This document shows, piece by piece, positions 1,996 through 24,154 of a stretch of DNA of 55,189 nt; position 1 is the first letter of the stretch; each line of letters opens with the position of its first letter. A program made the translations under genes and the position numbers. The DNA comes from Candidatus Rokubacteria bacterium 13_2_20CM_69_15_1. Lineage in GTDB: Bacteria; Methylomirabilota; Methylomirabilia; Rokubacteriales; CSP1-6. Below the pieces are notes generated by a model. That model worked only from the letters and a program-made list of their open reading frames with translations. It had not been told where the DNA came from and ran no database searches. The stretch covers positions 8,447 to 63,635 of the forward strand of contig MNCR01000094.1 of the NCBI GenBank assembly GCA_001914535.1, read 5' to 3'.

Positions 1996-3264
1996 ATGAC
2001 GCTGTTCGTCGCGGGGCTCTCGCACAAGAACGCGCCCGTCGAGCTGCGCGAGCAGCTCGCCGTGGAGGAGGACAAGCTGCGGGAGCTCCTGAGCGATGTC
2101 TCGGCCACGGGCGCGGTGCGGGAGACGTTGATCCTCTCCACGTGCAACCGGGTCGAGGTGTACGGGGTCGCCGAGGCGCCCGGCGAGGCGCGCGCCGTCG
2201 TGTTCCGCCACCTCTGCCGCTACCGGGGCGTCGCCTATGGCTCGGTGGAGCCCCTCCTGTACACGCACCTGGACGGCGACGCCGTGCACCACGCCTTCCG
2301 GGTCGCTGCGAGCCTCGACTCGATGATGATCGGCGAGCCGCAGATCCTGGGCCAGGTGAAGGACGCCTTCGGCCTCGCCCAGGCATGCGCGACGGTCGGG
2401 CCGGCGCTGCACACGCTCTTCACCGCGGCCTTCGCCGTCGCCAAGAAGGTCCGGACCGAGACGGAGATAGCCCGCCACGCGGTGTCGGTCTCGTTTGCGG
2501 CCGTCGAGCTCGCGCGGAAGATCTTCGCGGGGCTCGGTGGCAAGGCTGTCCTCCTCGTGGGTGCGGGCAAGATGGGCGAGCTGGCGGCGCGTCACCTGGT
2601 CGAGCATGGTGCGTTCCCGGTCTACGTCGCCAACCGGACGTGGCCGCGCGCCCAGGAGATGGCGCGGGCCCTCTCAGGGGCGGCGGTGCCGTTCGCCGAG
2701 CTCGAGACGGCGCTCGCGGGGGTGGACATCGTGATCACCTCGACGGGCGCCACCGAGCCGATCGTCACGCTCGCGATGGTCCAGCGGGTCATGCACGGGC
2801 GCCGCGCGCGGCCGCTCTTCTTCATCGACATCGCGGTGCCGCGCGACGTCGAGGGGAGCGTGAACACGCTCGCGGACGTGTACTGCTATAACGTCGACGA
2901 CCTGAAGCAGGTCGTCGAGGCGAACATCCGCGAGCGGCTCCGCGAGGCGCAACGCGGTGAGGCGCTGGTGATGCGCGAGGTGGCGAAGTTCCTCACCCGC
3001 CAGAGCGACGTCGAGGTCATCCCGACGATCGTCTCGCTGCGCGAGCGGCTCGAGGAGATCCGGGTGGGCGAGGTGCGGAAGGCGCTGGCGCGGCTGCCGG
3101 GCGCAACGGCCGAGACGCGCGAGGCGATCGAGGCGCTCTCGGCGGCCATCGTGAACAAGATCTTGCACGCGCCGATCACGAAGCTGCGCGAATCGTCGCG
3201 CGCGGGCTCGAGCCGCTCGTGGCTCCCGCTCATTCACGAGCTCTTCGGCCTGGGACGAAAATGA
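1996..3264 (+). CDS. hemA: glutamyl-tRNA reductase
   Basis: 422 aa. Motifs: LSTCNRVEVY, the active-site Cys region, and the NADPH-binding GAGKMGELAARHL. Confidence 0.95.
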   Translation: MTLFVAGLSHKNAPVELREQLAVEEDKLRELLSDVSATGAVRETLILSTCNRVEVYGVAEAPGEARAVVFRHLCRYRGVAYGSVEPLLYTHLDGDAVHHAFRVAASLDSMMIGEPQILGQVKDAFGLAQACATVGPALHTLFTAAFAVAKKVRTETEIARHAVSVSFAAVELARKIFAGLGGKAVLLVGAGKMGELAARHLVEHGAFPVYVANRTWPRAQEMARALSGAAVPFAELETALAGVDIVITSTGATEPIVTLAMVQRVMHGRRARPLFFIDIAVPRDVEGSVNTLADVYCYNVDDLKQVVEANIRERLREAQRGEALVMREVAKFLTRQSDVEVIPTIVSLRERLEEIRVGEVRKALARLPGATAETREAIEALSAAIVNKILHAPITKLRESSRAGSSRSWLPLIHELFGLGRK

Positions 3265-3355
3265 CGGCGCCGACCTCGGTCCAATGAAGCCCCGGGCTCC
3301 TCTCTCAGGCCACGTCCGGTCCGAGCCGGGCAGGCGGACCTCGGTCCAATGAAGC
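3261..3355 (+). repeat. 65 bp-period junction repeat (family A, about 1.4 units) carrying ATGA-linked mini-ORFs
   Basis: gacctcggtccaatgaagc occurs at 3272-3290 and again at 3337-3355. The core tcaggccacgtccgg is related to the repeats at 6078 and 13581. Confidence 0.85.
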
Positions 3356-4252: not shown

Positions 4253-5095
4253 GTGGCGAGGGTGACGCGGGTCGGTGGAACGCGCCCGCTCGAGCGGCGG
4301 ACGATCGTCGTGACACGGGCGGCCCCGCAGGCGCAGCGCTTCGTGCAGCTCCTCGAGGAGGCCGGCGCGCGGGTGCTGCAGGCGCCGACGATCGCGATCG
4401 AGCCCCCCCAGTCCTGGGAGCCGCTCGACGGAGCGCTCGCCGCGCTGGACACGTTCACGTGGGTGATCTTCACGAGCGTGAACGGTGTCGTCATGGTGGA
4501 CCGACGACTCTCCGCGCGCGGGCTCGGCTGGGCCGCCGTCGCCAGGAAGCGCATCGCCGCGATCGGCCCGGCGACGGCGGAAGCGCTCGCCGAGCACGGG
4601 GTGCGCGTGGAGGCGGTCCCGGACGAGTACCGCGCCGAGGCGCTCGTGGAGCGGCTCCGGCCGGCGATCGCGCCGGGTGACCGAGTGCTGCTGCCGCGCG
4701 CGAAGGAGACGCGCGACGTGCTCGTGGTCGAGCTGCGGCGGCTCGGGGCGTCGGTGTCGGAGGTGCCGGTCTATCAGACCCGACGCGTCGAGAACGGCGC
4801 GGGCCGCCTGCGCGAAGCCCTCGCCGCGGGCACGATCGACGCCGTGACGTTCACCAGCTCGTCCACGGCGCGCAACTTCGCCGAAGTCTTCACCGAGGAG
4901 GAGCGGCGCGCATGGCGCGGTCGGGTCACCATCGCCTCGATCGGCCCGATCACGGCGGCTACCGCGGCCGAATACGGGCTGACCACCGATGTCATGCCGA
5001 GTGAGTACACGATTCCGGCGCTCGCTCGGGCGCTCGTCGACTACTTTTCCCGGGTCCCGACACGCTCGGGGCGCCGGGGCAAAAGGAGCGCGTGA
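4253..5095 (+). CDS. hemD: uroporphyrinogen-III synthase
   Basis: The GTG at 4253 lies just after the hemC stop; the tracked ORF start at 4148 would overlap hemC. HemD-like motifs are RTIVVTR, FTSVNGV and [10 protein letters not shown]. The exact start is uncertain (4253 or 4262). Confidence 0.85.
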
Positions 5096-6081
5096 TGGCG
5101 CATGCGATGTTCCGTCCGAGGCGTCTCCGAGAGAAACCGCTGCTGCGCGCGCTGATCCGTGAGACGGCGCTGGCGGTCGACGACTTGATCTACCCGCTCT
5201 TCGCAGTCCACGGGCGCGGCGTCCGCGAACCGATCACGTCGATGCCGGGGCAGTTCCGGCTGTCCATCGACGAGCTGGTGAAGGAGGTCAAGGACGCGGC
5301 GGGGATGGGGATCCCTGCGGTGCTCCTCTTCGGGGTGCCGGCGGAGAAGGACCCCCGTGGCTCCGAGGCCTACGCCGAGGACGGCATCGTCCAGCAGGCA
5401 ATCCGCGCCGTGAAGGACGTCGTGCCCGATCTCCTGGTCGTGAGCGACGTGTGCCTCTGCGAGTACACGAGCCACGGTCACTGCGGGATCGTCGAGGGCG
5501 GCAGCGTCCGCAACGATCCGACGCTCGAGCTGCTCGCACGCGTCGCAGTCTCGCAGGCCGAGGCGGGGGCCGACATGGTGGCGCCGTCGGACATGATGGA
5601 CGGCCGCGTCGCCGCGATCCGCGAAGCCCTGGACGAGGCGACCTTCACCGACACGCCGATCATGGCCTACTCGGCGAAGTACGCCTCGAGCTTCTACGAG
5701 CCGTTCCGGGAGGCCGCCGACTCCGCGCCGCAGTTCGGCGACCGGCGCCAGTACCAGATGGACCCCGCCAACGCGCTCGAGGCCATGCGCGAGATCGCGC
5801 TCGATCTCGACGAGGGCGCGGACATCGTGATGGTCAAGCCCGCGCTGCCGTACCTCGACATCATCTCGCGCGCGAAGGCGGAGTTTGGAGTGCCGCTGGC
5901 CGCGTACTCGGTCTCCGGCGAGTACTCGATGATCCGCGCGGCGGGCCGGCTGGGCTGGCTCGACGAGGAGCGCGCCATGATGGAGGCCCTCGTGGGAATC
6001 CGGCGGGCGGGTGCGGACGTGGTGATCACCTACTTCGCGCGCGAGGCGGCGCGCCTCCTGGAGCGAGGCCGCTCGAGATGA
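5095..6081 (+). CDS. hemB: porphobilinogen synthase (delta-aminolevulinate dehydratase)
   Basis: The ATG at 5095 overlaps the hemD TGA (TGATG), with an AAAAGGAG RBS at 5081-5088; GTG 5092 is an alternative start. ALAD motifs: [25 protein letters not shown] and VKPALPYLD. Confidence 0.95.
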
Positions 6082-6260
6082 CGCCACGGGTGCCTTTGTC
6101 AGGCCACCCCCGGTGGGAGCCGGCCTCGCGGACCCCGCTACAAATGACGCCACGGGTGCCTTTATCAGGTCACCCCCGGTGGGGGCCGGCCTCGCGGACC
6201 CCGCTACAAATGACGCCCGCCGTCGACCGGCGCCGGCGGGGCATGACGCGCGCGCGCTGA
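6078..6260 (+). repeat. 66 bp tandem repeat (family A, 2 full units plus a partial) forming one in-frame 60-codon ORF
   Basis: Units begin at 6078, 6144 and 6210, each with atgacgcc. Units 1 and 2 are near-identical, with a few mismatches. Confidence 0.9.
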
Positions 6261-6263
6261 GCG

Positions 6264-6707
6264 ATGCGAATCTCGGCGAAGGGCGAGTATGCGATCAAGG
6301 CGGTGCTGGATCTGGCGATCCGCGGCGGGGAGGGGCTCGTGCCGATCCAGGACATCGCCGGGCGGCAGGCGATCCCGCAACGCTACCTGGAGCACGTCCT
6401 CTTGGCGCTGAAGGGCGCCGGGGTCCTCGGCTCGAAGCGCGGCGCCTCGGGCGGCTATCACCTGACGCGCCGGCCCGAGGAGATCAGCGTCGGTGACGTC
6501 TTGCGGGCCGTGGAGGGGTCCGCGGCGCCGCTCGAGACGCGCCGACGGACGGGCCGGCGGAACGGCGACGAGACGTACGAGCTCGGTGAGCTCTGGGAGG
6601 AGATCGGGAAGGCAGTCTCCGAGGTCGTCGACCGCGTCACCTTCGGCGACCTCGCGACCCGCGCACTCGCGCGCCGCAGCGCGGTGCGCGCGATGTACCA
6701 CATATGA
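6264..6707 (+). CDS. Rrf2 family transcriptional regulator, cysteine-free (CymR-like)
   Basis: 147 aa. The N-terminal wHTH is MRISAKGEYAIKAVLDLA...IPQRYLEHVLLALKGAGVL..RGASGGY. There are no Cys residues at all, so no Fe-S ligands. Its stop overlaps the cysK start (ATGA). Confidence 0.85.
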   Translation: MRISAKGEYAIKAVLDLAIRGGEGLVPIQDIAGRQAIPQRYLEHVLLALKGAGVLGSKRGASGGYHLTRRPEEISVGDVLRAVEGSAAPLETRRRTGRRNGDETYELGELWEEIGKAVSEVVDRVTFGDLATRALARRSAVRAMYHI

Positions 6708-7624
6708 CGCCGCGGCCGAAGATCGCGTCGTCGGTGCTCGAGCTGATCGGGCACACCCCGATGGTCCGCCTGAACCGGCTCCCGAGACCGGGGGGCGCGA
6801 GCGTCGTCGCCAAGCTCGAGTCGCTGAACCCCGGGGGAAGCGTCAAGGACCGGATCGCGCTCGCGATGCTCGAGGCCGCGGAGCAGCAGGGCCGCGTCAA
6901 GCCCGGCTCGACGATCGTGGAGCCGACCAGCGGCAACACGGGCATCGGGCTGGCGATGGCCGCCGCGGTGAAGGGCTACCGGCTCATTCTCACGATGCCC
7001 GACGACATGACCGTAGAGCGCCAGCGACTGCTGGCGCGGTTCGGCGCTGAGATCCACCTGACGCCCGCGATCGAGGGCATGACTGGCGCGGTGTACGCGG
7101 CCCAGGAGCTTTGCCGCGAGCACCCGGACTACTTCATGCCCCAGCAGTTCGAGAACCCGGCGAACCCCGAGGCGCACCGCCGCACCACGGCCCTGGAGAT
7201 TCTGGACGCCGTCGCCGGCCGCCTCGACGCGTTCGTCGCGGGCGTCGGCACCGGTGGCACGGTGACCGGGGTGGGTGAGGTGCTCAAGCAGAAGCTCCCC
7301 GGCGTGCGCGTGATCGCCGTCGAGCCGGCGAAGTCGCCGGTCCTCTCGGGCGGCCGGGCGCGGCCCCACGCGATCCAGGGGATCGGTGCGTCTTTCGTGC
7401 CTGGCGTCCTGAACCGGAGCATCATCGACCGGATCGTTCTGGTCCGCGACGAGGACGCGATCGGGTGGTCGCGGCGGCTCGCGCGCGAGGAGGGCCTGCT
7501 GGTGGGGGTCTCCGGCGGTGCCGCGGCGTTCGCCGCGTGCGCCGTCGCGGCGGAGCTCGGCCCCGAGCAGCTCGTCGTGACCGTGCTTCCCGATACCGGC
7601 GAGCGGTACTTGAGTCAGGGGTAG
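6704..7624 (+). CDS. cysK: cysteine synthase (O-acetylserine or O-phosphoserine sulfhydrylase; CysK/CysM type)
   Basis: 306 aa. It has the PLP-lysine region (NPGGSVKDR), TSGNTGIGLA, and a GTGGT loop (GVGTGGTVTG). Confidence 0.9.
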   Translation: MTPRPKIASSVLELIGHTPMVRLNRLPRPGGASVVAKLESLNPGGSVKDRIALAMLEAAEQQGRVKPGSTIVEPTSGNTGIGLAMAAAVKGYRLILTMPDDMTVERQRLLARFGAEIHLTPAIEGMTGAVYAAQELCREHPDYFMPQQFENPANPEAHRRTTALEILDAVAGRLDAFVAGVGTGGTVTGVGEVLKQKLPGVRVIAVEPAKSPVLSGGRARPHAIQGIGASFVPGVLNRSIIDRIVLVRDEDAIGWSRRLAREEGLLVGVSGGAAAFAACAVAAELGPEQLVVTVLPDTGERYLSQG

Positions 7625-7730
7625 TGCGAGCCGAGCGGCGGCCGCGGAGGCTCGGCGACGCGCGCCGCGAGGCGAGGCTGCAGACGGGGTAGTGCGAGCC
7701 GAGCGGCGGCCGCGGAGGCTCGGCGACGCG
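7618..7730 (+). repeat. 45 bp direct repeat (2 copies, 68 bp period) that includes the cysK stop codon
   Basis: ggggtagtgcgagccgagcggcggccgcggaggctcggcgacgcg occurs at 7618-7662 and 7686-7730. It contains an internal GCCGAG...CTCGGC stem around a GCGGCCGC palindrome. Confidence 0.85.
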
Positions 7731-7741
7731 GGTGACCGTTC

Positions 7742-7830
7742 GGGTTCGAGCGCCGGCTTTGCCGGCGCAACCGATTCCTGGGGGGAGGTTTCGGAAGGGG
7801 GGCAAAGCCCCCCTCCGAGGTTTCAGGAGG
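7742..7830 (+). repeat. structured two-hairpin intergenic element (family D, copy 1)
   Basis: Hairpin 1 is GCGCCGGC-ttt-GCCGGCGC (7750-7768). Hairpin 2 is GGAAGGGGGGC-aaa-GCCCCCCTCC (about 7793-7816). Related copies lie at 17192-17288 (inverted) and 32672-32786. Confidence 0.8.
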
Positions 7831-7835
7831 CCAGT

Positions 7836-9959: not shown

Positions 9960-10550
9960 ATGGGCGCAAAGGCGGGCGTGGGAGCGCTGGCGCTCGTGCT
10001 CCTCGCCGTTCTGGTCTTTCTGGCGGTCTCGTCGTGGAGTCGCCAGCCGGCAGTCGCGAAGCCCTCGAGTCAGCCGATCAACTTCCCGCACAGCGTGCAC
10101 GTGCAGACGTACCGGATCGACTGCCAATATTGTCACAGCGACGCGCGGCGCTCGGAGTACGCGGGCCTGCCGTCGGTCGAGCGCTGCATGGGCTGTCACA
10201 AGATCGCCGGTGCGGCGTTGCCGGAAGTGAAGAAGGTCGCGGACTACTACGCGCGGAGCGAACCGATCCCGTGGGTCCGCGTGAACAAGCTGCCGGAGTT
10301 CACGTACTTCCCGCACAAGGCGCACATCCGGGCGAACGTGAAGTGCCAGACGTGCCACGGCCCCGTCGAGACGATGACGACGTTCGGCGCCGAGACGGGT
10401 CCGCGCCTGACGAACGACCTGCTGAACCTCGTCGGGCTCCGGCCCGCGCCGCCGCCGCTCACGATGGGCTGGTGCGTCGACTGCCACCGGCGGCAGAACG
10501 CGACGGCGGGCATGCACGCGCCGCTCGACTGCGTCACGTGCCACCATTGA
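9960..10550 (+). CDS. actA: Alternative Complex III subunit ActA, pentaheme cytochrome c
   Basis: 196 aa with an N-terminal TM anchor and five CxxCH motifs (CQYCH, CMGCH, CQTCH, CVDCH, CVTCH). It is the first gene of an actABCDEF-ordered operon. Confidence 0.85.
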   Translation: MGAKAGVGALALVLLAVLVFLAVSSWSRQPAVAKPSSQPINFPHSVHVQTYRIDCQYCHSDARRSEYAGLPSVERCMGCHKIAGAALPEVKKVADYYARSEPIPWVRVNKLPEFTYFPHKAHIRANVKCQTCHGPVETMTTFGAETGPRLTNDLLNLVGLRPAPPPLTMGWCVDCHRRQNATAGMHAPLDCVTCHH

Positions 10551-10555
10551 CCGGA

Positions 10556-10679
10556 CGGAGCCGGACGTGCCTGTGATTCGTCACCTTCGCCCTGACCCGA
10601 GCTGGAGCTCCGATAAACGGAGCCGCACGTGCCTGTGACTCGCCACCCTCGCCCGGATGCGAGCTGGAGCTCCGATACA
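10556..10679 (+). repeat. 62 bp tandem repeat, 2 units (family B, related to the family A core)
   Basis: Units are 10556-10617 and 10618-10679. The core gtgcctgtgactcgccaccc resembles gttcctgtgtcaggccaccc of family A, with 16 of 20 identical by hand count. Confidence 0.85.
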
Positions 10680-13579
10680 TGATGAACCGACGGGACTTCT
10701 TTCGGGTCGTCGCGGCGAGCGGCGCCACCGCCGCCGTCACGGGCTGTCAGCGGACGGCGGAGAACATTCTGCCGCTCGTGGTGCCGAACGAGCACATCGT
10801 GCCGGGCGTCGCCGCATGGTTTGCGACGGTGTGTCGCGAGTGCCCGGCCGGCTGCGGCGTCATCGCGAGGAACCGCGAGGGCCGCGTCGTGAAGCTCGAG
10901 GGGAACCCCGACCACCCGGTCAACCAGGGCGCGCTGTGCGCGCGCGGTCAGGCGGCACTCCAGGGCCTCTACCATCCCGACCGATTCGCGGGCCCGCGCC
11001 TTCGCGACGGGGCCGCGCTGAAGCCCGTGAACTGGGACGCGGCCCAGAAGGTCGTCGCCGACAAGATCGCGGCGCTGCGGAGCGCGGGCAAGGGATCGGC
11101 GATCGCGCTCGTGACCCAACTCGAGACGGGAAGCCTGGGCGCGTTCCTCGACACGTGGACGCGGGCCCTCGGCACGCGCCCGCGCCTGAGCTTCGAGCCG
11201 TTCGGCTACGAGGCGAACCGCGCGGCGAACCGGATCACGTTCGGCCGCGACGCGATCCCGTACTACGCCTTCGAGGACGCACGGGTCGTGGTCTCCTTCG
11301 GCGCCGACTTCCTCGAGACGTGGCTGTCGAACGTGAACTACGCGCGGGCCTTCGCGCACATGCACACGTTCCGCGACGGCCGCGCGGGCACATACCTTCA
11401 CATCGAGCCACGGCAGTCGCTGACCGCGTCGAACGCCGACGAGTGGGTACGTAACGCTCCCGGCAGCGAAGGGCCGCTGGCGCTCGCGATCCTCAAGGTG
11501 ATGGTCGACGAAGGGCTCGCCGACCGGCGCTTCGGCGAGGCCGTCGCCCGGATCGACGTCAAGAAGGTCGCGGCCGACAGCGGCGTTCCCGTCGAGACGA
11601 TCACGCGCGTCGCCCGGGCCTTCGCCGACGGCAAGCCCAGTCTCGCGATCGGCGGCGGGATGGCCGTGACGGGCTCGAACGCGACGCAGACCCTGGTCGC
11701 CGTCAACCTGTTGAATGCGGCGGCGGGCAACGTCGGCAAGACCGTCCGCTTCGGCCCCGACTCGGCGTTCGGCAGGGTGACGCCGTACGCGGAGACGGCC
11801 CGGCTCGTGCAGGCCATGGCCCGGGGCGAGGTGGAGGTGCTGGTGCTCGGCAGCGGCGTAAACCCCGCCTATACGCTCCCGGGTGGCCTCAAGTTCGCCG
11901 ACGCCGCGAAGAGGGTGGGGCTCGTCGTCAGCTTCGCGAACCAGCCGGACGAGACGACGGCGCTCGCCCACGTCGTGCTGCCCGACACACACTGGCTCGA
12001 GTCGTGGGGAGACTACTCGCCGCGGGAGGGCGTCGCCGGCCTCATGCAGCCCACCATGGCGCCCGCGCGCGACGCGCGACCGATGGGAGACACGCTCCTC
12101 GCGCTGGGCCGTGCAGTGCTCGGGAGCGAGGCGGGGAAGGGGCCGCTACCCTGGGCGACCTTCGAGCAATACCTGAAAGCGGCGTGGGAGCCCAGCGTCA
12201 AGGGTGCGTGGGCGTCGGCGCTCCGCCTGGGCGGTGTCTGGAAGGAGACGGCGCCGGTCGCGGTGACCGCGCGCGTGGCGCCCGTCGACCCGGCGCCCCC
12301 GACGTTCGAGGGCACCGCCGATGGGCTCGCCCTTCTCGCGTATCCATCCTTCAGGTTCTACGACGGGCGGGGCGCGAGCCGCGCGTGGCTCCAGGAAGCG
12401 CCGGACACGATGACCCAGGCCGTGTGGGATCCGTGGGTGGAGATCGCGGCGGAGACGGCGGCGAAGCTCGGCATCGCCCGGGGCGACGTGGTCAGGGTGA
12501 CGTCGCCCCACGGTGCGATCGAGCTTCCCGCGTACGTCTCGCCGACGCTCCATCCGCAGGCGGTCGCCGTCCCCATCGGCCATCGCTACGCGCCCTATCA
12601 CATTCCACGCTACGTGACGGCGCCCCTCGGCCCACGCAACCCGGTCGCGCTGCTCGGGCCGGCCGCCGAGGGCGCGTCCGGCGGCCCCGCGTACCTCGGC
12701 GTCCGCGTGACGCTCGCCAAGACGGGCGCCCGGCACCCGCTCGCCATCCTCCAGGCGACGCACGATCAGGAGGGTCGAGAGCTCGCGCAGCACGTGGACC
12801 TCCGCGCGGCGCGCGAGCAGGCGCTCCGTGGCCGCCAGGACCACGAGGCGCACACCAGCATGTACCCCGACCCGCGGTACCCCGGGTACCGCTGGGGCAT
12901 GGCGATCGACGTGGACGCGTGCATCGGCTGCCAGGCGTGCGTGGTCGCCTGCCAGGCGGAGAACAACGTGCCCGTCGTCGGGCGCGCCCAGGCGGCCTAC
13001 GGGCGACAGCTCCAGTGGATCCGCATCGAGCGCTGGGCGGAAGGGAAGCCGGATCGGCCCACGAACCTCTTCCTGCCGATGCTCTGCCAGCATTGTGAGG
13101 TCGCCCCGTGCGAGCCCGTCTGTCCCGTGTTTGCGGCGTATCGTACGGAAGAAGGTCTCAACGGTCAGGTGTACAACCGTTGTGTCGGGACTCGATACTG
13201 CGGCAACAACTGCCCCTACCACGTGCGCCGCTTCAACTGGTTCCAGTACGAGTTTCCCGCGCCGCTCGACGTGCAGCTGAACCCCGACGTGACGGTTCGC
13301 CAGCTCGGGGTCATGGAGAAGTGCACGATGTGTCTGCAGCGCATCATCGCGGGCAAGGACCACGCCCGTGACGAGAGGCGTGCGGTGAAGGACGGCGACA
13401 TCCTGACCGCCTGCCAGCAGACGTGCCCCACCCGGGCGATCACCTTCGGCAACCTGAAGGACGAGCAGAGCGCCGTGGTCAAGTTCGCGCACTCGCCGCG
13501 CGCCTATCACGTCCTGGAGGAGATCGGGACGCGGCCGTCCATCACCTACCTCCAGAAAGTCGTTCGTGAGCACGCGTAA
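10679..13579 (+). CDS. actB: Alternative Complex III subunit ActB (molybdopterin-oxidoreductase-like domain fused to a 4Fe-4S domain)
   Basis: 966 aa. It has a twin-arginine signal with a lipobox (MMNRRDFFRVVAASGATAAVTGC), an N-terminal Cys cluster (CRECPAGCG), and C-terminal ferredoxin-type CxxCxxC motifs. Confidence 0.9.
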   Translation: MMNRRDFFRVVAASGATAAVTGCQRTAENILPLVVPNEHIVPGVAAWFATVCRECPAGCGVIARNREGRVVKLEGNPDHPVNQGALCARGQAALQGLYHPDRFAGPRLRDGAALKPVNWDAAQKVVADKIAALRSAGKGSAIALVTQLETGSLGAFLDTWTRALGTRPRLSFEPFGYEANRAANRITFGRDAIPYYAFEDARVVVSFGADFLETWLSNVNYARAFAHMHTFRDGRAGTYLHIEPRQSLTASNADEWVRNAPGSEGPLALAILKVMVDEGLADRRFGEAVARIDVKKVAADSGVPVETITRVARAFADGKPSLAIGGGMAVTGSNATQTLVAVNLLNAAAGNVGKTVRFGPDSAFGRVTPYAETARLVQAMARGEVEVLVLGSGVNPAYTLPGGLKFADAAKRVGLVVSFANQPDETTALAHVVLPDTHWLESWGDYSPREGVAGLMQPTMAPARDARPMGDTLLALGRAVLGSEAGKGPLPWATFEQYLKAAWEPSVKGAWASALRLGGVWKETAPVAVTARVAPVDPAPPTFEGTADGLALLAYPSFRFYDGRGASRAWLQEAPDTMTQAVWDPWVEIAAETAAKLGIARGDVVRVTSPHGAIELPAYVSPTLHPQAVAVPIGHRYAPYHIPRYVTAPLGPRNPVALLGPAAEGASGGPAYLGVRVTLAKTGARHPLAILQATHDQEGRELAQHVDLRAAREQALRGRQDHEAHTSMYPDPRYPGYRWGMAIDVDACIGCQACVVACQAENNVPVVGRAQAAYGRQLQWIRIERWAEGKPDRPTNLFLPMLCQHCEVAPCEPVCPVFAAYRTEEGLNGQVYNRCVGTRYCGNNCPYHVRRFNWFQYEFPAPLDVQLNPDVTVRQLGVMEKCTMCLQRIIAGKDHARDERRAVKDGDILTACQQTCPTRAITFGNLKDEQSAVVKFAHSPRAYHVLEEIGTRPSITYLQKVVREHA

Positions 13580-13580
13580 G

Positions 13581-13740
13581 CCAATGCAGCCCCGCGTTCC
13601 TGTGTCAGGCCACCCACGGTGCACGCCGGCCTCGCGGATCTCGGTGCAATGAAGCCCCGCGTTCCTGTGTCAGGCCACCCACGGTGCACGCCGGCCTCGC
13701 GGATCTCGGTGCAATGAATCCCCGCGTTCCTCGCCCGTGA
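13581..13740 (+). repeat. 65 bp tandem repeat (family A, 2 units plus a partial) with ATGA/GTGA-linked mini-ORFs
   Basis: Unit ATGs lie at 13584, 13649 and 13714. Units 1 and 2 are near-identical apart from cag/aag in codon 2. Confidence 0.9.
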
Positions 13741-22680: not shown

Positions 22681-23552
22681 GCGACCCGCTGTCGGCGTTC
22701 CTGCGATACCTGTCGCTGGAGAAGGACGCGTCGCCTCACACGCTCCGGAGCTACCGCACTGATCTGGATCAGTTCCGTGTGTTCATCGGATCTGGGACGC
22801 CGCTCACCCAGGTCGACGGGCGCACGGTGCGCGCGTATCTGGCGCACCTGCACTCGCGTGGCCTCGACGCGTCGTCCGTCGCCCGGAAGCTCGCCGCGCT
22901 GCGGAGCTGGTTCCGCTTCCTCGTCCGGCGGGGGATGCTCACCCGCAACGTGGCCCGCGAGATTCGCGGGCCGCGCCTCGGGCGGAAGCTCGTGGGGTTC
23001 CTGCCGATCGACGAGGCGCTCATGCTGGTGGACGGGAAGGCGGTCGGCGGCGCCGCGCGCGAGCGGGACGTGGCGATCCTGGAGCTCCTGTACGCGACGG
23101 GGCTGCGCGTGTCCGAGCTGGCGGGCCTGGACGTGGACGACGTGGACCGGGCCGGGCTGACGGTGCGCGTGCTGGGCAAGGGGCGGAAGGAGCGGATCGT
23201 TCCCTTCGGCAGCCAGGCGGCGCGCGCGCTGGACGCCTACCTCGGACGGCGCGCCACGCGGTGCCCCACGCTCTTCACGAATGCGCGTGGGGGGCGGCTT
23301 TCTGCGCGCGCGATCCACGCGATCGTCCGCAAGAGCGCCGCGGCGTCGGGCATCGTGCGTCGGGTGAGCCCGCACACGCTCCGGCACACGTTTGCGACGC
23401 ATCTGCTCGACGCGGGCGCCGACCTGCGGGTCATCCAGGAGCTTCTCGGCCACAGCCGGCTCAGCACGACGCAGCGCTACACCCACGTCGGCGCCGACCA
23501 GCTCATGCGTGTCTACGACGCCGCCCACCCGCGCGCGCACACCACGTCATGA
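22677..23552 (+). CDS. xerC: tyrosine recombinase XerC/XerD
   Basis: The ATG at 22677 overlaps the topA TGA. The N-terminal SAM-like domain starts [22 protein letters not shown]. Catalytic R..HxxR..Y region: [13 protein letters not shown]...[15 protein letters not shown]. Confidence 0.9.
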
Positions 23553-23614
23553 GCGGAGGTCGGGAGCCCCGCCGCACCCATGGCAGGCCCCCCGTGGTCC
23601 AATGGGGGCTCGAG

Positions 23615-24154
23615 GTGCCCGCGACAACATTCCACGCGACGACGGTGCTCGCGGTCCGCCATCGCGCCCAGGTGGCCCTCGCCGGTGACGGCCAGGTCTC
23701 CATCGGGAACGCCATCGTGAAGGCGGGCGCCAAGAAGGTGCGGAAGCTCTACCACGACCGCGTGCTGGCCGGCTTCGCCGGCACCGCGGCCGACGCCTTC
23801 ACGCTCTTCGCGCGCTTCGAGAGCCGGCTCGAGGAGCACCGGGGCAACCTCCCGCGCGCCGCGGTGGAGGTCGCCAAGGACTGGCGCACCGACCGCGTCC
23901 TCCGGCGGCTCGAGGCGTTGCTCGCGGTCGCCGACCGCGAGAGCTCGTTCATCATCTCGGGCAACGGCGACGTGATCGAGCCCGACGACGGCCTCGTCGG
24001 CATCGGCTCGGGCGGCCCGTACGCGCTCGCGGCGGCCCGCGCGCTGGTCGCGCACTCGGACCTCGACGCCAAGGGGATCGTGACCGAGGCGATGCGCATC
24101 GCCGCCTCGATCTGCGTCTTCACCAACGACCACATCAGCGTGGAAGTCCTGTGA
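23615..24154 (+). CDS. hslV: ATP-dependent protease subunit HslV (CodW-like N terminus)
   Basis: The core is [22 protein letters not shown], close to Bacillus CodW SSFHATTIFAV. The start is uncertain: GTG 23615, or ATG 23549 which overlaps the xerC stop. Confidence 0.85.

Follow-up and report, generated by a model that had tools for sequence, protein, structure and literature searches.

A MIRU-like repeat array that probably preserves translational coupling between hemB and an Rrf2-family gene in Candidatus Rokubacteria

The window analyzed here is a 55,189-nucleotide stretch of the genome of Candidatus Rokubacteria bacterium 13_2_20CM_69_15_1 (contig MNCR01000094.1, positions 8,447 to 63,635), with a GC content of 69.8%. 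Between hemB and the gene of an Rrf2-family regulator, it carries a tandem repeat with a period of 66 bp (positions 6078-6217, 2.1 copies, 95% matches by Tandem Repeats Finder). The initial annotation of this locus, made from the letters alone, recognized the 66-bp period but counted 2.7 copies. We find two full units followed by 8-9 nt of a third (ATGACGCC). The remaining ~42 nt (6219-6260) are GC-rich and non-homologous to the unit, and the count of 2.7 is therefore too high. This 3′ tail contains an in-frame ATG at 6243, ends in TGA at 6258-6260, and was found in 10/10 strain contigs as two linked haplotypes. The haplotypes read CCCGCCGTCGACCGGCGCC and CCCGGCGTCGACCGGTGCC at 6219-6245 and in the same stretch of the contigs (L001-L010). 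A possible 7-bp stem (CCCGCCG/CGGCGGG) lies inside this part of the tail, and the tail is missing from empty sites.

A single open reading frame (ORF) of 60 codons crosses the whole array. Its ATG (6078-6080) overlaps the TGA of hemB (6079-6081; hemB identified by Pfam), and it stops 3 nt before the Rrf2 ATG at 6264. Frame, start overlap, stop and translation are all as first annotated, as are the ATGACGC motifs at 6243 and 6704 and their variant ATGACGGC at 3261. Gene callers left this spacer ORF unannotated. A promoter and terminator scan found no promoter-like or terminator-like sites in 5900-6450. A TACAAT sequence at the element 3′ end was considered as a -10 box and rejected; it overlaps the ATG, so a transcript starting there would be without a start codon, and the promoter scan was empty.

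The 66-bp unit belongs to a dispersed repeat family. Searches with nhmmer, using an alignment of the units, place the copies at 3284-3349 (65 bp) and 13584-13714 (65 bp, two units) of the window in the same family (E<1e-16), and the core is matched four times against 0.01 expected by chance. To census the family, one genome per species was scanned with the core pattern TCAGGCCACNNNCGGTNNNNGCCGG, which gave at least 120 loci, followed by confirmation with nhmmer; all counts of units, arrays and chains below are among the matches listed, plus the window. In this set, nhmmer confirmed 88 loci, and the family comprises at least 129 distinct units in at least 99 non-redundant arrays. The hosts are nearly all metagenome-assembled genomes (MAGs) named Rokubacteria, Rokuibacteriota or Methylomirabilota, with at least 12 loci in AR19 (QHSZ01) and at least nine in AR34. 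Pattern matches in Actinoplanes, Pseudomonas and similar genomes were rejected as chance, the rest of the unit being missing. The core unit is ~62-66 nt long and contains ...CCT.T.TCAGGCCACC.CGGT....GCCGGCCTC..GG.CCCGCTACAA. Copies occur as direct repeats and never as inverted pairs. A literature search for described Rokubacteria repeats returned nothing relevant.

Elements are found in sense orientation at the starts of genes and where two genes of one operon meet. In 53 of the 99 arrays, its 3′ end (...CCCGCTACAA) is followed by TGA/ATGA, forming an NTGA overlap with the start of a gene of at least 50 codons. These genes show the genomic coding signature, and the TGA closes the frame that crosses the element. 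Canonical N-termini are present among the abutted starts, including those of ndk (MTERTLAIIKPD), sucC (MKIHEYQAK), polA (MKRLFIVDGHSH), purD and cobA. Overall, 56/99 arrays abut a same-strand gene start, and a linked same-strand upstream gene is present in 42. A short ORF runs through the element, beginning on or beside the upstream stop; its own stop, a TGA, overlaps the downstream start or lies very close to it. The element takes the place of the downstream gene's Shine-Dalgarno region: 34 of the 53 abutted genes have no GGAG, GAGG or AGGA within 20 nt upstream, and a further 16 have such a motif only at 11-nt spacing. Strong Shine-Dalgarno sequences are found in the window at hemB and thiS. 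The distance from core to start is fixed, with the T of TCAGG 44 nt before the A of ATG.

The register of these spacer ORFs is kept far above frameshifted controls. Walking upstream from each abutted start codon through the spacer ORF(s), we recovered an unbroken chain from upstream gene to downstream gene in 42/53 arrays, or 39/53 when only strict overlaps were accepted. Spacer ORFs in these chains span 8-114 codons, and in five arrays the upstream gene itself reads through the element. As a control, 1 or 2 nt were deleted or inserted inside the last unit. This left 5-9/53 chains (2-5/53 with strict overlaps), while a 3-nt deletion left 42/53. The native register is therefore 5-8 times above the frameshift controls.

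Repeat periods point in the same direction. For the 39 tandem repeats inside the arrays or no more than 60 nt away, the period is divisible by 3 in 31, 3n-1 in seven and 3n+1 in one. Leaving aside 65 and 66, 22/24 periods are multiples of 3 (15, 18, 21, 24, 30, 36, 39, 42, 45, 48, 54, 63 and 105); the binomial probability of at least 22/24 at p=1/3 is ~4e-9, although some arrays are orthologous and the trials are not fully independent. The signal is carried by accessory repeats, as main-unit periods alone (0 or 2 mod 3 for 10 distinct lengths, 1 mod 3 for two) are not significant (P~0.18). Many copies of the major subfamily are preceded by tandem repeats of 15-48 nt, for example GGGCGTG(T)CGGAGCC... 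modules (motif GGTTGTCCGCGGA). All of these upstream repeats share the frame of the element ORF, and they frequently each provide a GTG in that frame. Sites include L041:6192-6387, L028:3892-4218, L017:2823-2964, L044:2284-2390, L056:2201-2298 and L104:1-186.

Judging from the sequence, the repeat between hemB and Rrf2 is probably an array of a dispersed Rokubacteria/Methylomirabilota repeat that behaves like the MIRUs (mycobacterial interspersed repetitive units), keeping translational coupling between the genes it separates, with the peptide as a by-product. Selection would then act on translatability and register, and not on the encoded peptide. Ribosomes ending the upstream gene would re-initiate on the spacer ORF, translate the spacer, terminate at NTGA and re-initiate on the downstream gene, which would probably rely on this termination-reinitiation relay. 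Units of 65 or 62 bp (3n-1) produce a chain of overlapping mini-ORFs, one per copy, and units of 66 bp (3n) fuse the copies into one ORF; ribosomes can pass from gene to gene under both unit lengths. Slippage or unequal recombination could shift the copy number while leaving the relay whole, giving strain variation of the variable-number tandem repeat (VNTR) type.

Copy number does vary among strains at all four window arrays, as the initial annotation had anticipated. Contigs with identical proteins are soil MAGs of Candidatus Rokubacteria/Rokuibacteriota. Among ten contigs with an identical Rrf2 protein, the hemB-Rrf2 junction has one unit in eight and two units, like the window, in two. The hemA-hemC junction has one or two units among strain contigs, and one scaffold is gapped there. 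The actA-actB junction has one unit in one contig, two in six contigs and the window, and three in three contigs; the actB-actC junction has one unit in L211 versus two in the window. The relay is intact in every strain allele of all four arrays, with identical flanking proteins. Five contigs have ATA in place of the internal ATG where the units meet, and their fused frame is open all the same. In L003, a run of N (30-125) falls exactly at the hemA-hemC array. Arrays break or confuse short-read assemblies, and copy numbers in MAGs may thus be under-reported.

Related genomes hold the corresponding empty sites. In eight relatives with 80-91% hemB identity (L131-L138), the fetched loci are free of the element throughout. 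Between hemB and Rrf2, these relatives show a GTGA overlap (L137 and L138) or a spacer of 3-14 nt; at the empty hemA-hemC site of L131, stop and start overlap directly as ATGA. This suggests that the element arrived recently in this lineage and that the junctions it entered had been coupled beforehand; at hemA-hemC and hemB-Rrf2, it would have inserted where coupling was already tight. ATGA flanks the inserted blocks on both sides at hemA-hemC, and may either belong to the element or result from target duplication, the relatives being strongly diverged. The element may have spread by transposition or recombination. Some other insertions are old: several species carry an array before the same gene (polA in L016, L023 and L032; the pairs L057/L106 and L017/L033).

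Several observations weigh against this interpretation, or weaken the evidence for it. At the hemB-Rrf2 locus itself, the downstream junction is a 3-nt gap instead of an overlap. Translational coupling is not universal in the family: 46/99 arrays have no abutting gene start, including some (6078 and 13584, for example) where just a partial unit intervenes; ~10-12 face a convergent gene, and six lie in antisense against a tRNA gene's 3′ end. At 70% GC, every frame has few stop codons, so the openness of the ORFs is weak evidence in itself. At a variable TNN codon, 0 stops occur in 129 units versus ~1.7 expected from column frequencies, which is uninformative, and stop counts are low in all frames and give little power. 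Because arrays such as those at polA are orthologous, the census counts are not fully independent. Finally, translatability alone would not require the degree of core conservation seen across species and loci.

The antisense copies lie 0-3 nt from the tRNA 3′ end on the opposite strand (L058:~4150, L095:~6376, L096:~6338, L113:~738 and L091:~499 and ~697), and the tRNA is the same in four different MAGs. Such copies cannot serve as translational couplers.

Core conservation and the fixed distance to the start leave room for a more active role. The element could be a selected cis-acting translation module, whose core binds a protein, a small RNA or the ribosome and thereby promotes or regulates re-initiation across a co-regulated set of genes. 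The strong conservation of the core, the constant 44 nt from TCAGG to ATG, the abutted genes without Shine-Dalgarno motifs and the arrays kept before the same genes in several species are all consistent with this, as is the clustering of variable positions in blocks, which resembles a recognition motif. Yet hemA-hemC and hemB-Rrf2 were coupled before the element came, and its gain there is recent; its copy number varies freely among strains; and some copies are antisense to tRNA genes or face convergent genes. We therefore regard a selected module as unlikely. By analogy with the termination upstream ribosome-binding sites (TURBS) of caliciviruses, the core might act as a portable re-initiation module without a Shine-Dalgarno sequence, holding or recruiting the terminating ribosome, or a regulator, ~44 nt before the overlapping stop/start, an idea to which we also give little weight. 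If a module of this kind did operate, dozens of genes, including polA, ndk, sucC, purD and those for haem and alternative complex III, would share one initiation mechanism, and tandem copy number would tune initiation.

Comparison of the core with the 3′ region of E. coli 16S rRNA gave no convincing complementarity. The element 3′ end GCTACAATG (e.g., 6131-6146) is identical in sense, and not complementary, to GCUACAAUGG, a stretch of E. coli 16S rRNA regarded as universally conserved; this is probably a coincidence.

We find no evidence that RNA or DNA structure maintains the family. Array folding is no better than that of shuffles on both strands (z=-0.8 and -0.5), and single units have a mean folding z of -0.44. 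Across 129 units, RNAalifold finds no consensus structure on either strand (-2.0 kcal/mol in sense and -0.4 kcal/mol in antisense, without covariation). No long-range Watson-Crick covariation was detected, mutual information being dominated by neighboring columns that mark subfamilies. Rfam, searched at gathering threshold on the whole window and permissively on 5900-6400, returned only tRNAs and noise. Individual copies do contain local hairpins, and these are specific to each locus, as first annotated; the one at 3319 has a spacer of 11 nt (GGTCCG-N11-CGGACC) and not 12.

These results bear on the view that the family is purely structural, a repetitive extragenic palindromic (REP) or MITE (miniature inverted-repeat transposable element) type of repeat serving as an mRNA stabilizer, terminator or transposase substrate, with an ORF that is an accident of high GC. 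A dispersed intergenic repeat with a GC-rich core and local hairpins invites such a view, and a truly palindromic second repeat family is present in the same genomes. The ends of the major subfamily are also imperfectly complementary (9/11 positions), but pair frequencies there equal the expectation from column make-up, and the other subfamilies lack this pairing. Candidate MITE features are these ends and the ATGA, which might be a target-site duplication or part of the element; a conserved imperfect palindrome with a stable stem-loop, as in REPs, is absent. Together with ordinary folding energies, periods in multiples of 3, and direct repeats without inverted pairs, the register with flanking genes makes a purely structural element highly improbable. 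The initial annotation proposed that evenly spread substitutions with frequent stops or frameshifts would identify an accidental ORF. Substitutions are indeed even across codon positions, but frequent stops or frameshifts are not seen, and 42/53 native chains versus 5-9/53 frameshifted ones speak against an accident.

The 22-residue peptide does not appear to be selected. The initial annotation had suggested a constraint on this peptide, and a functional micropeptide would conserve the DNA repeat through its selected unit (M-x-P-R-[VA]-P-[LV]-S-G-H-...). In favor of this, the ORF is open in every strain allele and an S-G-H-P-R segment recurs among frame-0 copies. However, in the originally annotated frame, mean column entropies at codon positions 1/2/3 are 0.62/0.63/0.63 bits (129 units), and variable positions form blocks with no three-base rhythm. 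In approximately 11 arrays, which form the AATGAGCGACGCG subfamily and end in ACAAATGA, the core is translated in frame +1 (MSDARLSQATHG...), which gives the unrelated peptide MSDARLSQATHGxxRPRGPRYK; those arrays are still ATGA-coupled on both sides. Frame +2 is used by the copy at 23563. Because of this frame switching, the micropeptide is largely refuted.

Composition and polymorphism agree with this result. GC by codon position is flat in element ORFs (0.69/0.71/0.74), unlike in adjacent genes (0.73/0.50/0.93). Peptide length and content vary freely with spacer ORF length, no Pfam family matched the 60-codon ORF or any of six spacer peptides, and the gene callers passed that ORF over. Codon-position-dependent conservation in one fixed frame, the mark of a conserved small-protein family, is thus absent. 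Strain polymorphism (21 units in 11 near-identical contigs) comprises 19 distinct substitutions, eight synonymous and 11 non-synonymous. The third-position excess (9/19 changes) is mild and non-significant, and with a synonymous share of ~29% expected by chance, 8/19 has P=0.15. The four silent differences of about 13 between the 6078 and 13584 units, as counted in the initial annotation, therefore fit neutrality; identity to the 13584 units is 51-52/66 and not ~53. Overall, we consider it very doubtful that a functional micropeptide underlies the repeat.

Coupling preserved by a repeat that carries its own reading frame has a close parallel in mycobacteria. As summarized in two later sources, MIRUs (Supply et al. 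1997) are 40-100 bp units, present at ~40-50 per genome in operon spacers and co-transcribed, with ORFs overlapping the neighboring genes at their ends, tetranucleotide direct repeats, and empty sites in one related species (PMC3184786; PMC12548453). The same summaries describe apparent insertion at start codons, with a repeat ORF coupled at -4 nt and minimal effect on the gene (PMC3184786; PMC12548453). The Rokubacteria family likewise has short units dispersed at many loci in the same orientation between operon genes, strain-variable tandem copy number, small ORFs that overlap the flanking stop and start at -4, and filled and empty sites in related genomes. MIRUs are interpreted as insertions that spare downstream expression through translational coupling, and we propose the same for the present family. 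The hosts, however, are Rokubacteria/Methylomirabilota and not Actinobacteria, and a sequence relationship is unlikely across phyla. We therefore call the family MIRU-like and not MIRU.

Relative to MIRUs as so described, three features are new: the use of all three frames of one core at different loci, the in-frame accessory repeats of 15-48 nt that precede many copies and build spacer ORFs of up to 114 codons, and the quantitative evidence for register. In addition, some copies here form C- or N-terminal extensions of real genes, and some arrays occupy orthologous positions across species.

Other repeat systems share fewer of these traits. REPs, bacterial interspersed mosaic elements (BIMEs) and REPINs of proteobacteria are also short, GC-rich, extragenic and numerous, often within operons. 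Unlike the present family, REPs are imperfect palindromes, arranged in inverted pairs and linked to RAYT transposases; here, there is neither a conserved hairpin nor inverted pairing, and orientation and frame relative to the flanking genes are strictly kept. Rickettsia palindromic elements (RPEs) were reportedly described by Ogata et al. in 2000 as inserted in frame in protein genes. They are similar as selfish repeats tolerated for keeping frame, as in the five arrays read through by the upstream gene and the copy read into hslV. RPEs are palindromic and lie inside genes, whereas the Rokubacteria family lies mainly at stop/start junctions as separate mini-ORFs. Short ‘delivery’ ORFs are mentioned among cases of termination-reinitiation coupling (PMC12548453; Huber et al. 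2019 cited there). Such ORFs and overlapping gene pairs share with our arrays the NTGA (-4) overlaps, very short gaps and a short ORF that brings the ribosome to the next start. In contrast to known delivery ORFs, those described here are on a repeated, apparently mobile element, whose tandem copies would create multi-step relays.

If our interpretation is correct, the MIRU principle, in which a repeat spreads into operon junctions and survives by carrying its own coupled mini-ORF, would have a second and independent instance in this family. It would come from another phylum, with statistical support from frameshift controls and periods that goes beyond a handful of loci. It would also indicate that register alone can be enough for selection to keep a frame open in an intergenic repeat, which calls for caution in small-protein discovery. 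With one, two or three relay steps, the alleles form a natural series in which coupling efficiency could be studied. They could also serve as VNTR markers to type strains of this soil lineage, which is abundant and uncultured. The arrays also account for assembly breaks at these junctions.

The window contains four arrays and one degenerate copy in 55 kb (Table 1). All four arrays are on the + strand between co-directional genes, and their junctions are, without exception, ATGA/GTGA or a gap of no more than 15 nt. At hemA-hemC, hemA was identified by PF05201/PF00745 (Pfam). A distant subfamily is represented by the 62-bp array at 10555-10677, where nhmmer, run with the unit alignment, gave a weak match at 10617-10677 and the alignment is convincing for the 5′ half only. 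Each of its units has GGAG, 6 nt, and then GTG, opening ORFs at 10567-10638 and 10629-10682, the second of which overlaps the actB ATG (10679) with its TGA. Between actB and actC, two ORFs of 22 codons (13584-13652 and 13649-13717) and one of eight (13714-13740) are joined by ATGA/GTGA overlaps; the actB stop (TAA 13577) lies 4 nt before the first, and the last stop overlaps the NrfD-type GTG at 13737. The actA-, actB- and actC-like genes resemble those of alternative complex III.

Table 1. Repeat elements, spacer ORFs and flanking genes in the window
Feature	Position	Strand	Evidence and context
Unit 1, 66 bp	6078..6143	+	Tandem Repeats Finder; nhmmer E=1.6e-19
Unit 2, 66 bp, 63/66 identical to unit 1	6144..6209	+	Tandem Repeats Finder; nhmmer
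3′ tail, 51 nt	6210..6260	+	Opens with 8-9 nt of a third unit
Spacer ORF, 60 codons	6078..6260	+	ATG overlaps hemB TGA (ATGA, -4); stop 3 nt before Rrf2 ATG
hemB, porphobilinogen synthase, PF00490 (ALAD)	5092..6081	+	Pfam; upstream gene
Rrf2-family regulator gene	6264..6707	+	Pfam; downstream gene; stop overlaps cysK ATG (6704) as ATGA
Mini-ORF, 8 codons, from unit 3′ end	3261..3287	+	ATG overlaps hemA TGA (3262-3264); TGA overlaps next ATG
Mini-ORF, 22 codons, one 65-bp unit	3284..3352	+	TGA 3350-3352 overlaps hemC ATG 3349
Two 62-bp units, distant subfamily	10555..10682	+	Between multihaem cytochrome gene (actA-like, 9960-10550) and actB-like gene
actB-like molybdopterin/4Fe-4S gene	10679-13579	+	Stop TAA 13577-13579
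65-bp array, 2 units + partial unit	13584..13740	+	Between actB-like gene and NrfD/actC-like gene (GTG 13737)
Degenerate copy	23563..23628	+	nhmmer E=1e-4, family-wide profile; between XerC-like integrase gene (stop 23550-23552) and hslV

An ORF running from ATG 23549 (ATGA overlap with the integrase TGA) into hslV traverses the degenerate copy at 23563 in the third frame. This frame would add a ~30-residue N-terminal extension to HslV ahead of the catalytic Thr-Thr. Alternatively, the true hslV start may be the in-frame GTG at 23614.

The start of cysK, ATGACGCCGCGGCCG (MTPRP, 6704-6718), is much like the 5′ end of the 66-bp unit, ATGACGCCACGGGTG (MTPRV, 6078-6092). The cysK starts of relatives differ (MDGPMTI.. 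and VSRPPIA..). The likeness may be chance, a remnant of the element or the source of the unit's 5′ end.

A second, unrelated repeat family lies directly after stop codons and consists of GTGCGAGCCG, a GC palindrome and GCGAGGCGAG. It occurs in the cysK-thiS spacer of the window (7625-7835) and at L017:5689-5887, L078:1532-1659 and L095:270-376. The window copy is duplicated, with ~68 bp including the cysK stop, and it looks REP-like, unlike the hemB-Rrf2 element. Among near-identical strains, the cysK-thiS spacer is 116, 156 or 210-211 nt long.

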